Virus genome (UHGV): UHGV-0046264
Strand: one strand, 5' to 3'
DNA length: 38,853 bases
Source: a virus
Shown: positions 1,583-17,114 of the stretch, in pieces
How positions within the stretch are numbered: the first letter of the stretch is position 1
Layout of the letters: each line of letters starts with the position of its first letter
Notes under the pieces: model-generated
Databases searched by the model: none
What the model saw: the letters and a program-made list of their open reading frames with translations, nothing else
Told to the model about the DNA's origin: nothing
Made by a program: the position numbers and the translations under genes

Positions 1583-1792
1583 TTAATTTGAATATAATGC
1601 AATTCTCGAGGACTGAAGTTTCTCGCAATTAAAATTTATCAGTTTTACTTTCTGCTCTCTGGAAACGCCTGCTTCTTTTTTACCTGAGAGCATTTTTTCG
1701 CATTCTGATTTCGTTAGTTTAGATTTTGAATATCTTGTCCAGTTAGTAGGAGTGCCACCTTCCTTTTCAATAGTGGCGGTAATTTTATACAT
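1583..1792 (-). CDS. ydaC: YdaC-like small protein (DUF1187), 69 aa
   Basis: ORF starting MYKITATIEKEG; its ATG overlaps the ralR stop (ATGTATAA); position matches Rac gene order. Confidence 0.6.
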   Translation of the reverse strand: MYKITATIEKEGGTPTNWTRYSKSKLTKSECEKMLSGKKEAGVSREQKVKLINFNCEKLQSSRIALYSN

Positions 1793-11978: not shown

Positions 11979-12482
11979 ATGACTGAATTAACCAAAAAGC
12001 AATTAATCGAAGAAGCTAAATTAAAAATAGCGATTGAGAAATGCCACCCCAATTCAGGGATGGCACGGGTAGAGGGCGAATTATTCAAAATTGCTCTGGC
12101 ATCGCTGGAAGCAGAGCCAGTTGGTGATTTTTATGAATACAAACCGGATGACTGGTATCAGCGTTCGGCTGGAGATAAAGCGCCAAAATGGACGCCACCC
12201 TATGCCGTTTTTCCAGCGCCCGTAGTGCCGGAAGAAATGGATTTGCTTACATGCCATCTCGATGGTGTAACTGAAACATATGCTGAGGGATGGAACGCTT
12301 GCCGCGCTGCCCTGCTTCAGGGCAAAGGGGAGCCCGGGAAACAAGTTCGCGAATTGACAATGCTGGTTAAACAATTGGTTAGTCAACTGAAGAAACCGAA
12401 ACCGGGCTGCAAATTGCCGGATAAAGTGATGGACTACCTGGAGCGAAGCGGACTTATAAGCGTGGAGGATGTTTTACGATGA
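11979..12482 (+). CDS. Hypothetical protein, 167 aa
   Basis: ORF preceded by a G9 homopolymer and a GNRA hairpin between the AGGAGG and the ATG; no family recognised. Confidence 0.5.
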   Translation: MTELTKKQLIEEAKLKIAIEKCHPNSGMARVEGELFKIALASLEAEPVGDFYEYKPDDWYQRSAGDKAPKWTPPYAVFPAPVVPEEMDLLTCHLDGVTETYAEGWNACRAALLQGKGEPGKQVRELTMLVKQLVSQLKKPKPGCKLPDKVMDYLERSGLISVEDVLR

Positions 12483-12562
12483 CCTGGCCTGAAGCATTCA
12501 CAACGGTAGGAATTGCGATGGCGGTGGCGCTGGTGGTGTATTCGATTTGCCGCTGGGGTTGA
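12479..12562 (+). CDS. Small hydrophobic peptide, 27 aa (MTWPEAFTTVGIAMAVALVVYSICRWG), translationally coupled to the upstream ORF
   Basis: ATGA stop/start overlap with the 167-aa ORF; one predicted transmembrane helix; stop lies 5 bp from the IS5 insertion target site. Confidence 0.4.
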   Translation: MTWPEAFTTVGIAMAVALVVYSICRWG

Positions 12563-12567
12563 TAATA

Positions 12568-12571
12568 CTAA
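12568..12571. repeat. IS5 target site duplication CTAA (left copy)
   Basis: CTAA immediately flanks both IS5 terminal inverted repeats. Confidence 0.8.
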
Positions 12572-13766
<1,195 letters not shown>

Positions 13767-13770
13767 CTAA
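13767..13770. repeat. IS5 target site duplication CTAA (right copy)
   Basis: Direct repeat of 12568-12571. Confidence 0.8.
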
Positions 13771-13774
13771 ATAA

Positions 13775-13793
13775 CCAGCCCTTATGGGGCTGG
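13775..13793. terminator. Stem-loop CCAGCCC-TTATG-GGGCTGG between convergent genes (putative bidirectional terminator)
   Basis: 7-bp GC-rich stem just downstream of the KilA-N gene stop and, before the IS5 insertion, downstream of the 27-aa ORF. Confidence 0.5.
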
Positions 13794-13801
13794 CTAATCA
13801 T

Positions 13802-14575
13802 TTAGAACTGTTCATTGCCATCGAGGTTAGGTAGCATAATTTTTTCAATCAAGGCGAGAGCCTTTTTGTCCCGGTCAGCGAAGTATTTCGGGGCATATTG
13901 CGGCAACCAAATATTGTTAAAATGTTCTTTGAAATCTGCTAAATATTCATTTGGGTACAGCCTTGCAGGGTATACGCGACCATCGGGATATTCATGGTCA
14001 TAGGTAGGGAATGTTTTGGGTTCTACGTTTCTATTATCTCTTAACCATTGTGAAAATACTCTTCCTTGTGAAATGTCAGGAACCATTTTTTCTGGGAGTG
14101 TGTACCCTGCTTGTTCAAGAGGTGCAACCAAGTTGAATGTCAGTTCATTAAGAATAGAAAAGTGCGTGTGAGGAATTCTACTACGATTAACCATGTACCG
14201 TTTTAAATGTACAGGCATTTCTGCTGTAGTTCTTTCCCCTGACATCCATTCACGAACCCATCTTGAAACCTGGACTGCAAATTTGGGCGATAGCCACTGC
14301 GCTAGATTAATAGCGATGTCAGGATGCACCCATGTCCCTTGGTTTTCAGGTCTTCCACCTTTAAATGATTGAATTAACTCCGATATGGGAATTCCCATAT
14401 CGCGTGATAATTCGTCAAAAAACTCTTGAGTAGTTTTGAGTCTAGTGTAATCAGAGAGCAGTTTGCCCGCAGTTCTACACATTGATGTGGCGTTTATGTA
14501 ACCATCTTTGGCACGTAAATGTATTATTTCGCCGTCAATTTCACGAGAAATCAAAGATAATTGAAAGGATGTCAT
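13802..14575 (-). CDS. KilA-N domain protein with uncharacterised C-terminal domain, 257 aa
   Basis: N-terminal ~110 aa fit the KilA-N pattern (YINATSMCRTAGK...GTWVHPDIAINLAQWLSPKFAVQVSRWV); C-terminal ~150 aa not recognised. Confidence 0.75.
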   Translation of the reverse strand: MTSFQLSLISREIDGEIIHLRAKDGYINATSMCRTAGKLLSDYTRLKTTQEFFDELSRDMGIPISELIQSFKGGRPENQGTWVHPDIAINLAQWLSPKFAVQVSRWVREWMSGERTTAEMPVHLKRYMVNRSRIPHTHFSILNELTFNLVAPLEQAGYTLPEKMVPDISQGRVFSQWLRDNRNVEPKTFPTYDHEYPDGRVYPARLYPNEYLADFKEHFNNIWLPQYAPKYFADRDKKALALIEKIMLPNLDGNEQF

Positions 14576-15097
14576 TGAAAATTCCTCAAGTTGGAGAGTT
14601 CTGGAACATTAAGGCGAGGTGGCAGTAATGCACCATCTGTAATCTTTTGATACTGACGTAATCGGACCTGATGTGCAACGCCTTGCAAGTATGTAACTCA
14701 TTGAAAACGATCATTTTTATCTATTGACATCAAATGGCAAACTGTCATTGTGCGGCTATGGCAAGTGGCAAATGCTTATAAATCATATGGATATAAATAG
14801 TACAGAAAGAGTTGTTTTCTCTAGGATATGAGTATACGCCCAATGCTGATTGGTTGAATTTTGTTCTTGTTTTAAAGGGTAAGAGTTTAAAGTGTTGGCA
14901 GTGATGTATTGGATAGTTAGAATTGCTGTGGGTGCTTGAGGCTATCTGCCTCGGGCATGAACACCAAAGGCAGATAGAGAAAAGCCCCAGTTAACATTAC
15001 GCGTCCTGCAAGACGCTTAACATTAATCTGAGGCCATATCTATGCGACACATAGAGATTAGCCTCTTACGGACCGAAAGGTCAAGGAGAAGCAGGCT

Positions 15098-15223
15098 ATG
15101 AAGCAGCAAAAGGCGATGTTAATCGCCCTGATCGTCATCTGTTTAACCGTCATAGTGACGGCACTGGTAACGAGGAAAGACCTCTGCGAGGTACGAATCC
15201 GAACTGGCAGACGGAGGCTCTGA
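15098..15223 (+). CDS. Hok/Gef-family type I toxin homologue, 41 aa as encoded (C-terminus shorter and divergent)
   Basis: MKQQKAMLIALIVICLTVIVTALVTRKDLCEVRIRTG matches the Hok/Gef/RelF transmembrane core, then RRRL-stop; AAGGAG ribosome binding site 9 nt upstream; structured leader with a 10-bp stem at 14933-14968. Confidence 0.7.
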   Translation: MKQQKAMLIALIVICLTVIVTALVTRKDLCEVRIRTGRRRL

Positions 15224-15305
15224 TTCGTAGACTACTAATCTGAGTAAAAGACCCAGCGGGGAAAGAACCACGCCGGGACTAGTTAATAAGATATTTATAG
15301 CGTGG

Positions 15306-15647
15306 CTATTCTTTTTTTGCGGTATAGACTTTTTCGCCTGAGAAGTCTGGAGCTACCCAAAAGTTAATATTAAACTGAGCATCATCGCTTAGTTCAACAC
15401 GGTGCCAGTATTGTGGTGGGCTTGTTGCAAAAGCGCCAGCATTAATGACTACTTTTATCTCCGGTTCAGTAGCATTCTCATCAGCAAAACCATAATATGT
15501 TACAGTACCTTCCATCACGCATAACTGTCCAAAAACACCTGCTGCTGTATTATGATGTGTTAATAACGCTGAAGGTACGTTCTCTTTTGTGAAGAACGGA
15601 GTTGAGCGTTTGATTACCCAGTCTTTAGGAATTCTCTTGTGTGTCAT
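15306..15647 (-). CDS. YeaR-like DUF1971 protein (TehB N-terminal domain-like), 113 aa
   Basis: Pattern RSTPFF...YYGFADE..EP...FATSPPQYWHRVE...FNINFWVAP resembles YeaR/DUF1971 as I recall it; GGAGGTGGTT ribosome binding site before the internal ATG. Confidence 0.55.
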   Translation of the reverse strand: MTHKRIPKDWVIKRSTPFFTKENVPSALLTHHNTAAGVFGQLCVMEGTVTYYGFADENATEPEIKVVINAGAFATSPPQYWHRVELSDDAQFNINFWVAPDFSGEKVYTAKKE

Positions 15648-16514
15648 AACCACCTCCCATAAAACATGCATTATAAATGCACCTTTTTGAGGGTTATGTC
15701 AAGCTGTTATGAAACACATAATTGATATGTTGATTAGAGGAGAAGATAGAATCAATATGGTTGTTTTTCGTATAACTATTTGTTTTACTTTTAGTTTGTG
15801 CATTCTGTGTGTTAGGAATAACTTATTAAAGTTTAACTAAAAAATCTCGATATAGTCCGCATAGATTACTGTTACTGAATCTTATTGTGTGCATTAGTTG
15901 TGTTCTGAAATTTCAATTTAATTACTTATGATATATTTTTAACGATAAATGTTTTCCGGGTGAAAGACAGTGGGGGATGAGATAAGCAATATATCATTAA
16001 TCTTGATTATTTCCAAGATGCCTTTACTGTGCATATAAATAAATCATATACGCATCAAATAATGTAAAGGCATCCTTTTAGATATATCTTATCAAATGTT
16101 AATGATTTGAGTGGGAAACATGATTCCAGAAACTAATCATGCGGCTACTTTATAAAAATAATGCCCATATAAAACAGCCAGCGAAAAGGATTACGGATAA
16201 AAAAGGAGCGAGATGTGCATAGTTGTTATTTTCCATGTTTAACCACCTTAAATAATTGATGATGACGGGATGTGCATCTGTAATGCTTTTGTTGAAATGT
16301 TATGATAAAAAAGAACTTTTTCATAACATTAAAATGTAATTTATCTAATCGTTTTTAATAATAAGTGTTGTATTTCTATCCTTGTATCAGCTATTTGATA
16401 TGTAGTGTTTGTTCATGTTATGTGGAGCTTTACACCATAGCCAGTTTATTTATACTTTATTCGTCAGCCTGAACAACTGGCATCTGCTGCACTGCGCCAT
16501 CGAGAGATTGAGAA

Positions 16515-17114
16515 ATGGCGCATATACAACTGGTCAAACAAACCTCTTCTGGACTACTTCTCCCGGCGACGCCGGAGAGTTGCGATTTTTTGCATCAAAT
16601 CAAAATAGGCGAGTGGATACACGCAGACTTTAAGCGTGTGCGTAACTACGCATTCCACAAGCGTTTTTTCAAACTCCTGCAACTGGGATTCGATTACTGG
16701 ACTCCGGTCGGTGGGGCGATCACGCCTCGCGAACGAAAGCTGGTTTCAGGATTCGTTGATTACCTATGTGAATCAGTAGGCCGGGAACATACGCCAGCTC
16801 TGAGCGAAGCCGCAGAGCAATATCTGAATACAGTTGCGACACGCAGAACCCGGGATACGGCATTGCTAAAGTCGTTTGAGGCTTTCCGCGAGTGGGTAAC
16901 CATTCAGGCCGGATTTTACACCGAGCATCTTTATCCTGATGGTAGCCATGGGCGTCGGGCGAAATCCATCGCTTTTGCGAATATGGACGAAACCGAGTTT
17001 CAGCAGGTTTATAAATCTGTTCTGAATGTGCTGTGGAACTGGATTCTGTTCCGTAAATTTTCCTCTCCGGAACAAGTCGAAAATGTGACCGCGCAGCTGC
17101 TGGAGTTTGCGTAA
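16515..17114 (+). CDS. DUF1367-family lambdoid protein (YbcN-like), 199 aa
   Basis: Position and size typical of the nin-region gene preceding DUF1364 and Q in lambdoid prophages; assigned by recollection of the family. Confidence 0.55.
   Translation: MAHIQLVKQTSSGLLLPATPESCDFLHQIKIGEWIHADFKRVRNYAFHKRFFKLLQLGFDYWTPVGGAITPRERKLVSGFVDYLCESVGREHTPALSEAAEQYLNTVATRRTRDTALLKSFEAFREWVTIQAGFYTEHLYPDGSHGRRAKSIAFANMDETEFQQVYKSVLNVLWNWILFRKFSSPEQVENVTAQLLEFA

Follow-up and report, generated by a model that had tools for sequence, protein, structure and literature searches.

We analyzed the virus genome UHGV-0046264, a 38,853-nucleotide (nt) stretch of DNA referred to here as the window, and concentrated on three genes that lie beside a copy of IS5. 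These are a gene for a 257-amino-acid (aa) protein with an N-terminal KilA-N domain, a hok-like locus on the opposite strand and a gene for a YeaR-like DUF1971 protein. An earlier note, made from the letters alone, had described them as one accessory island between a replication module and a nin-like module; the three open reading frames (ORFs) and IS5 were found where it had placed them, all three gene identifications held at the domain level, and the position as accessory cargo between the two modules was borne out. By homology, the 257-aa protein belongs to BstA, a family of proteins by which prophages counter other phages through abortive infection, and we consider it probable that the locus combines three unrelated modules in a variable slot of a Rac prophage, namely a BstA-family defence cassette, a decayed hok/sok locus and a DUF1971 gene.

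The window represents a Rac-like prophage inserted at ttcA, with 99.9% identity to a stretch of E. coli TUM14771 that carries, in order, intR, xisR, ralR, recET, immunity and replication genes, lysis genes and head genes. The slot is flanked by the replication block (ydaU, ydaV, DUF1627, DUF977) on one side and a nin/Q-like block (DUF1367, DUF1364, DUF1133) on the other. In the Rac prophage of K-12 a truncated ydaW adjoins the rzpR pseudogene, so that the whole slot is deleted; the statement in the earlier note that K-12 Rac has no counterpart was therefore correct.

Table 1. Features of the cargo slot and its surroundings (window coordinates; bp, base pairs)
Feature	Position	Strand	Remarks
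IS5	12572-13766	minus	1195 bp; transposase ORF 12718-13734; IS5 family transposase in RefSeq
G+C-rich hairpin, likely bidirectional intrinsic terminator	13774-13794		just downstream of the bstA-like stop codon
bstA-like gene	13802-14575	minus	257 aa; KilA-N + BstA_C; predicted abortive-infection defence protein
BstA_C domain (aa ~119-251)	13823-14221	minus	homology to the BstA C-terminus
KilA-N domain (aa 14-112)	14240-14536	minus	Pfam PF04383, E = 4e-27
Cassette 5' region	14576-14647	minus	72 bp; ribosome-binding site GAGGAA; cassette-specific, not in A30
Conserved non-coding segment upstream of hok	14648-14917		carries TGACA/TGTCA, TGGCAA copies and candidate leftward promoter
Candidate leftward promoter	14740-14713	minus	TTGCCA-16-AAAAAT, 9/12; best sigma-70-like match on the bstA-like strand
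Candidate hok promoter	14895-14923	plus	TTGGCA, 17-nt spacer, TAGAAT; 10/12, joint-best in 13700-16600
hok mRNA 5' leader (tac, ucb, mok ribosome-binding region)	14930-15100	plus	intact
Sok-like antisense RNA	14979-15049	minus	aligned to annotated sokW of phage 933W
mok-like ORF	15042-15101	plus	19 codons; TGA overlaps hok ATG (ATGA)
Truncated hok ORF	15098-15223	plus	41 aa versus 51 aa
Junction of hok 3' untranslated region and DUF1971 module	15262-15311		hokW/hokD homology ends at ~15261; DUF1971-context homology starts at 15312
DUF1971 (YeaR/TehB-N-like) gene	15306-15647	minus	113 aa; alternative ATG at 15671 gives 121 aa
AT-rich stretch	15672-16514		843 bp, 28-33% G+C, between DUF1971 and DUF1367 genes; travels with DUF1971

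The bstA-like gene and its family

The earlier note had left the C-terminal half of the KilA-N protein unrecognised and asked for a domain search. When this search was run, the domain was identified as BstA_C (Pfam PF26567, named BstA_C in the gene table), in agreement with PHROG 6287 and the PADLOC BstA model. The whole protein matched PHROG 6287, 'BstA abortive infection system, replication inhibitor' (E = 2.7e-89, 300 bits), against which BstA-BTP1 scored 501 bits and a protein of E. coli O178:H19 (strain 2012C-4431, L012:3336-4241, minus strand) 444 bits. The O178:H19 protein is 42% identical to BstA-BTP1 and was used as a likely stand-in for BstA-Ec, matched by length (the O178:H19 hit in Table S1 of Owen et al. 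is 897 nt, the same length as BstA-Ec). The PADLOC model aligned with aa 119-238, in the C-terminal half (E = 3e-21). BLASTP placed aa 125-251 on aa 164-302 of BstA-BTP1 (32% identity, E = 3e-16) and gave 23% identity with the BstA-Ec-like protein (E = 8e-6). Comparison of a 44-relative profile with a profile of three canonical BstA proteins by hhalign revealed a collinear alignment of aa 32-247 with aa 48-298 (probability 98.3%, E = 1.3e-14), and the motifs PDIS.G, F139/E144, W177/R179 and Y207-P208 were common to the protein and BstA-BTP1.

A homologue search yielded 2652 cluster representatives at E <= 1e-3 across Proteobacteria. Both domains were checked in the best 120 of these, including the 100%-identical cluster, and all 120 carried PF04383 and PF26567 in precomputed annotation. 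The name BstA_C was taken from these annotations; our own scan returned a single Pfam match, to KilA-N, because the Pfam and NCBIfam sets scanned hold no BstA_C model. The ORF was intact and full-length relative to the family, and its product possessed both the KilA-N(-like) DNA-binding domain at its N-terminus and the C-terminal BstA_C domain expected of a BstA protein. The C-terminal domain thus maps to a known family with established function, BstA abortive infection. In spirit this is the outcome that the earlier note had said would refute its reading, although the family it had named was Bro/antirepressor.

BstA-BTP1 of Salmonella phage BTP1 (ST313-td) gathers at replicating phage DNA and causes abortive infection, as characterised by phage challenge; the homologues tested are BstA-Ec and BstA-Kp (Owen et al. 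2021, PMC8585504). Phages restricted by BstA-BTP1 in E. coli include lambda, phi80, P1 and T7. Like these three proteins, the window protein combines a KilA-N-type N-terminus with a BstA_C C-terminus, falls in the same PHROG and Pfam BstA_C families, and is encoded by a prophage-borne single-gene cassette with its own terminator. Unlike BstA-BTP1, it is ~50 aa shorter and has a canonical Pfam KilA-N domain at its N-terminus, whereas BstA-BTP1 gives no Pfam hit and has a KilA-N-like domain by remote homology only. By homology it is a member of a known, named family, distinguished by the canonical KilA-N domain, shorter length, genomic position and lack of a BTP1-type aba element (see below).

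Linkage of BstA genes to the prophage repressor, with bstA a short distance downstream of it, is frequent and not obligatory (PMC8585504), and the nearest relatives of the window gene likewise occupied the slot directly after cI. In IMG/VR, a co-oriented cI/LexA-type gene ended 32-355 bp upstream at 49 of the 56 loci with 78-88% identical alleles, and these 49 loci represented several immunity types. Alleles of phage PhiR5_2 and Proteus phage V3 (81-86% identical) and of E. coli G6/7 (77% at the nucleotide level) also lay directly after cI. In contrast, none of the 15 IMG/VR loci with a 100% identical allele had an upstream repressor. The window allele therefore belongs to a lineage that normally resides in the canonical BstA slot but has moved; its present site separates the replication module from the nin-like one, and it is oriented opposite to the lytic genes on either side. 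A 75% identical homologue in Limnobaculum xujianqingii (L094:4001-4762) was found after a primase-like gene (Zn_Ribbon_Prim, Toprim_3, DUF927) and before a P63C-domain gene; since it is not beside a repressor, KilA-N + BstA_C genes are present in satellite-like or different mobile settings as well.

The domain content and the position of the relatives both bear on whether the protein is instead an antirepressor, Bro or KilA-type regulator of the lysis-lysogeny switch or of host functions, with no role in defence. Many antirepressor and Bro-type proteins begin with a KilA-N module, and the N-terminal half also matched PHROG 129 ('transcriptional regulator', E = 9e-25) and, by fold, the DNA-binding APSES domains of Mbp1 and Bqt4. 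However, ANT, KilA-C and Bro-C gave no Pfam match in the protein at E <= 0.1, and its C-terminal half is BstA_C. The co-oriented position of close relatives directly downstream of cI suits genes expressed in lysogeny, such as rexAB and bstA, so that an antirepressor there would be self-defeating. We consider a regulatory role of this kind unlikely.

The extent of the cassette was defined by comparison with E. coli strain A30 (L006), whose version of the slot is without the KilA-N gene. Homology between A30 and the window by blastn was confined to 12479-12558 and 14648-15261, and between these blocks A30 carried a different 437-bp minus-strand cassette (L006:4564-5000). These boundaries delimit a bstA-like cassette of ~880 bp (~13767-14647) that consists of the terminator, the gene and the 72-bp 5' part. 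The hairpin at its downstream end folded with -20.3 kcal/mol (z score -4.1) on the minus strand and -16.1 kcal/mol (z score -2.7) on the plus strand; a consensus terminator scan made no call at this hairpin. The bstA-like gene was present at >=95% identity in ~117 of 5426 complete E. coli genomes from varied sources, and the 342-bp stretch upstream of it in 118. The product of the A30 cassette is a 51-aa protein that contains two CxxC pairs (MEKTVNKKICSKCGEPCEILF...KCTKCES); a G+C-rich hairpin terminator comes after its ORF.

Expression, self-immunity and predicted function

Two features of the bstA-like gene are those expected of independently expressed cargo: it opposes the lytic genes on either side, and a hairpin terminator of its own follows it. 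A scan for sigma-70-like promoters (13700-16600) placed the best match on its strand within the segment common to the window and A30, 140-165 bp before the start codon, with a predicted transcript start near 14706; the TTGCCA of this candidate is the reverse complement of the first of three TGGCAA copies in the segment.

A prophage that carries BstA escapes its action through aba, a short cognate DNA element, which in BTP1 spans 63 bp (-29 to +34 relative to the start codon) and depends on the CCCGCC direct repeats at its ends (PMC8585504). We searched for direct repeats of >=6 bp, 20-90 bp apart, that straddle the start codon. This search recovered CCCGCC(A) at -28/+28 in BTP1, 56 bp apart. 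At the BstA-Ec-like locus (L012:4150-4330) it returned ATCCCT at -34/+23, 57 bp apart and thus with the geometry of the BTP1 element, which makes this repeat a candidate aba of BstA-Ec. None was found at the window gene or in PhiR5_2. Two sequences at the window gene, TTTCAAT (7 bp, present twice, 15 bp apart at the start codon) and a 7-bp inverted repeat within the 5' coding region, were considered as aba and dropped, being AT-rich and not conserved in relatives.

By homology, the bstA-like protein would be expressed from the resident prophage. On infection by another phage it would accumulate where the phage DNA replicates and stop that replication, and the infected cell would die without releasing progeny. 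By analogy with BTP1, a short cognate aba in or near the gene would be expected to spare the lytic replication of the carrier prophage itself. The cassette would in this respect resemble lambda rexAB and sieB-type 'moron' genes, which are carried by prophages as separate cassettes in fixed places and are thought to protect the host against other phages; it differs from them in having no sequence relationship to either, and rexAB is a two-gene system beside cI.

Several observations weigh against this prediction. Identity to BstA-BTP1 and the BstA-Ec-like protein was low (23-32%) and pairwise confined to the C-terminal domain, and the PADLOC match covered only 43% of the protein length. The promoter scan found no confident promoter in the cassette's own 72-bp upstream region. 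Unlike at BTP1, the repeat search found no straddling repeats of ~56-bp spacing at the window gene, although the search may not transfer to this gene because the aba of BTP1 is the sole one mapped. When E. coli was surveyed with DefenseFinder, bstA was reported in tRNA-Arg prophages only (PMC10121019). As far as we found, the literature holds no publication, and no experiment, on the 257-aa protein or the KilA-N + BstA_C subfamily.

The promoter result, together with the location outside the canonical slot, would also fit a gene that has been moved off a cI-linked promoter and persists as silent or inert cargo, no longer expressed or useful; the carriers are all nearly identical in sequence and so provide no evidence of selection. 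Against this stand the intact, full-length ORF, the retained terminator, the carriage by ~117 complete genomes from varied sources and the plausible promoter further upstream, and we regard an inert gene as improbable. A BstA-type defence function remains our preferred interpretation.

If the gene acts in this way, it is probably among the reasons why the carriers (~2% of the complete E. coli genomes) could withstand certain phages. Human clinical strains account for many of the carrier isolates, which is relevant to phage therapy and host-range prediction. Common defence annotation may miss the gene, judging from the half-length PADLOC match and the DefenseFinder survey (PMC10121019); that KilA-N + BstA_C proteins at large form a big BstA-like branch under-called by such tools is a more doubtful proposition. 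The self-immunity element of this branch may differ from the BTP1 aba in form or position. One speculative candidate is the TGGCAA array 160-195 bp upstream, read as KilA-N binding sites. The Rac-borne allele, being displaced, could reveal how a cassette of this kind retains self-immunity outside the cI operon. The allele offers a natural test of aba self-immunity without an adjoining repressor.

The intergenic segment and the hok/sok remnant

The earlier note had proposed a regulated divergent promoter between the KilA-N and hok genes on the basis of an inverted repeat, given as TGACA-N16-TGTCA at 14725-14750, and three TGGCAA copies at 14735, 14759 and 14766. The three copies were confirmed. 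The inverted repeat had been mis-measured and reads TGACA (14725-29)-N13-TGTCA (14743-47); two repeats of this type with 5-bp arms occur in the window versus 0.53 expected, and 12% of shuffles reach two. TGGCAA was not enriched overall (36 observed versus 34.5 expected), and its triple cluster was one of four hexamer triplets in the window (mean of 0.9 and maximum of 7 in shuffles), mildly unusual but picked post hoc. The segment that carries the motifs was 86-95% conserved upstream of the intact hokD in A30, ~95% from ~14680 on, and the first TGGCAA copy was not conserved there. Because this segment travels with hok in A30 in the absence of the KilA-N gene, the repeats lend no support to a regulated divergent promoter common to the two genes. 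What survives of the proposal is that a leftward promoter may lie within the segment, as the promoter scan suggests; the repeats give no real evidence of regulation. Small ORFs of 30-42 aa in 14576-14930 were dismissed as spurious, with no family matches and A30 conservation that ends after the first ~10 codons.

These data also bear on the broader view of the earlier note, in which the KilA-N, hok and DUF1971 genes form one co-regulated island, the first two sharing a divergent promoter with the repeats as operators. The three genes are adjacent in ~100 genomes, one TGGCAA copy provides the -35 hexamer of a sigma-70-like match on the KilA-N strand, the different leftward cassette of A30 in the same place fits a leftward promoter in the shared segment, and the TGGCAA triple cluster is somewhat rarer in shuffles. 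However, A30 has the motif segment and hokD without the KilA-N gene and with one TGGCAA copy lost, hok has a separate promoter 125-170 bp from the TGACA/TGGCAA motifs, the inverted repeat is at chance level, and hok itself is a remnant. The bstA-like module, its upstream stretch and the DUF1971 module differ in boundaries and in distribution (~117, ~118 and ~450 of 5426 genomes, respectively), so that the 'island' is a mosaic. It is ordinary mosaic prophage cargo and not a new system, and we attach little probability to co-regulation of the three genes.

Analysis of the hok locus revealed an intact 5' part and a damaged 3' part. The locus was 92% identical at the nucleotide level to hokW of phage 933W over 14918-15261, with the promoter, leader fold and Sok region kept. 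The candidate promoter lies 7-9 nt upstream of the start of the Rfam leader match (14930), which scored 104.3 bits against a gathering score of 59 and covered model positions 1-157 of 157 (RF01794, in practice a model of the hok mRNA leader as far as the hok AUG). When 13700-16600 was scanned with Rfam at a low threshold, this leader was the only RNA family detected. The Sok-like region formed a hairpin of -30.2 kcal/mol (z score -4.6). The Hok leader and antisense Sok of a Hok/Sok type I system were thus both present.

In contrast to hokW and hokD (relF), the coding part was disrupted. The first 37 residues were identical to HokW, and a 1-nt deletion at codon 38 replaced ...RTGQTEVAVF(T/V)(A/D)YE.. 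with ...RTGRRRL* (aligned with hokW of 933W and hokD of A30, the latter intact at 51 aa). No full-length (~50 aa) Hok with a periplasmic tail is encoded; the 41-aa ORF matched only model positions 1-34 of 42 of Pfam HOK_GEF and scored 32-35 bits with the NCBIfam Hok models, under their cut-offs of 73-89. The mok frame was also altered, the equivalent ORF being in frame with hok in 933W and A30. From ~15262 the DUF1971 module takes the place of the hok 3' untranslated region, with its fbi element and terminator, and the fbi sequence CCTCAACGCACCCG had no match anywhere in the window at <=3 mismatches; the 3' fbi and terminal stem-loop of a Hok/Sok type I mRNA were accordingly absent. The divergent hok-like ORF of the earlier note is thus a hok-family ORF on the strand opposite KilA-N, but a frameshifted and truncated allele. 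It resembles the inactivated chromosomal hok loci of K-12 reportedly described by Pedersen and Gerdes in 1999. Hok-like sequence was present in most genomes.

In R1 Hok, loss-of-function stops were recovered at 18 of the 20 codons one substitution from a stop, and toxicity was also abolished by Y48N, by C-terminal tags or extensions and by 3' stem-loop mutations (PMC9841398). Given these mutant data, the frameshift and the lost fbi element and terminator, the 41-aa Hok is probably non-toxic, and the decayed hok/sok most likely neither kills cells nor stabilises the prophage, although Sok may continue to be produced. That the locus still works in addiction or stress, with a toxic, Sok-controlled 41-aa peptide that stabilises the prophage or adds to abortive infection, is improbable. 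In its favour, the promoter, the leader, Sok and the start of mok have survived intact, the mok ORF ends at the hok ATG such that coupling may persist (mok has to be translated no further than the hok start; PMC9841398), and the transmembrane part and R-x-x-L-C motif are kept. Against it, the conserved periplasmic tail is lost, premature stops, Y48N and C-terminal tags abolish R1 Hok toxicity, and the locus lacks both the fbi element and the 3' stem-loop, on which a stable mRNA pool depends.

The DUF1971 module and the prophage around the slot

The DUF1971 assignment of the earlier note and the gene end at 15306 on the minus strand stood, while its start at 15671 is less likely than 15647, which is preceded by GGAGG, agrees with the 342-nt RefSeq coding sequence and is favoured by PHROG 34268 (matching aa 9-121 of the 121-aa form). 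The product contained a full-length DUF1971 domain (E = 3.5e-26, model positions 1-80 of 80), like K-12 YeaR and the stand-alone TehB-N-like proteins, and matched PDB entries 3dl3 ('tellurite resistance protein B', E = 3e-59) and 3bb6 (YeaR, E = 5e-25). Unlike those of YeaR and 3dl3, its gene is prophage-borne. Unlike true TehB, it had no methyltransferase domain; the NCBIfam TehB model scored 47.7 bits against a cut-off of 303 and aligned only over model positions 11-106 of 289. The gene and the 843-bp stretch upstream of it were found in ~450 of 5426 complete E. coli genomes, and other Rac-like prophages pair the module with other cargo, such as a 269-aa hypothetical protein or an epoxyqueuosine reductase (QueH). 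The DUF1971 gene is thus a commoner fixture of Rac-like prophages; together with the hok part, it adds nothing new. The AT-rich stretch contained no ORF of >=60 aa. Promoter-like sites were noted within it at 16429-16456 (plus strand) and 16033-15988 (minus strand).

Rac-like prophages carry variable cargo between the DUF977 gene and DUF1971/DUF1367, and this slot behaves as a cargo hotspot. The 269-aa protein (L009:4561-5370, minus strand) occupies the equivalent slot of one Rac-like prophage, and a 90-aa ORF with the QueH gene (L010:4175-5386) that of another. PADLOC returned no match for the alternative cargo proteins of other strains' slots, including the 269-aa protein. Upstream of the IS5 site, a 167-aa ORF (11979-12482, plus strand) matched PHROG 660 (E = 3e-50); the slots of A30, KFu019 and AMSCJX02 lack this ORF, which is therefore also variable cargo.

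The ends of IS5 (GGAAGGTGCG...CGCACCTTCC) were flanked by a 4-bp CTAA target duplication at 12568-12571 and 13767-13770. Six genomes (H1-H6) matched the query from its first base, inside IS5, whereas the other full-length matches listed start at query base 68, window position 13767, consistent with an IS5-free site. IS5 is for this reason seen as a late, unrelated secondary insertion and not as cargo. It would have arrived after the bstA-like cassette, landing just past the terminator hairpin, which was left intact.

The GenBank 'phages' vB_EcoS-666R9, -673R7 and -613R10 were considered as evidence of inducibility and rejected, as they are PHASTER predictions and not induced virions. Elsewhere in the prophage, a full-length Rfam match (1608-1786, plus strand, 225 bits) identified the small RNA RalA, the antitoxin of the Rac RalR type I system, and the matching RefSeq record annotates ralR, kilR, sieB and trkG.

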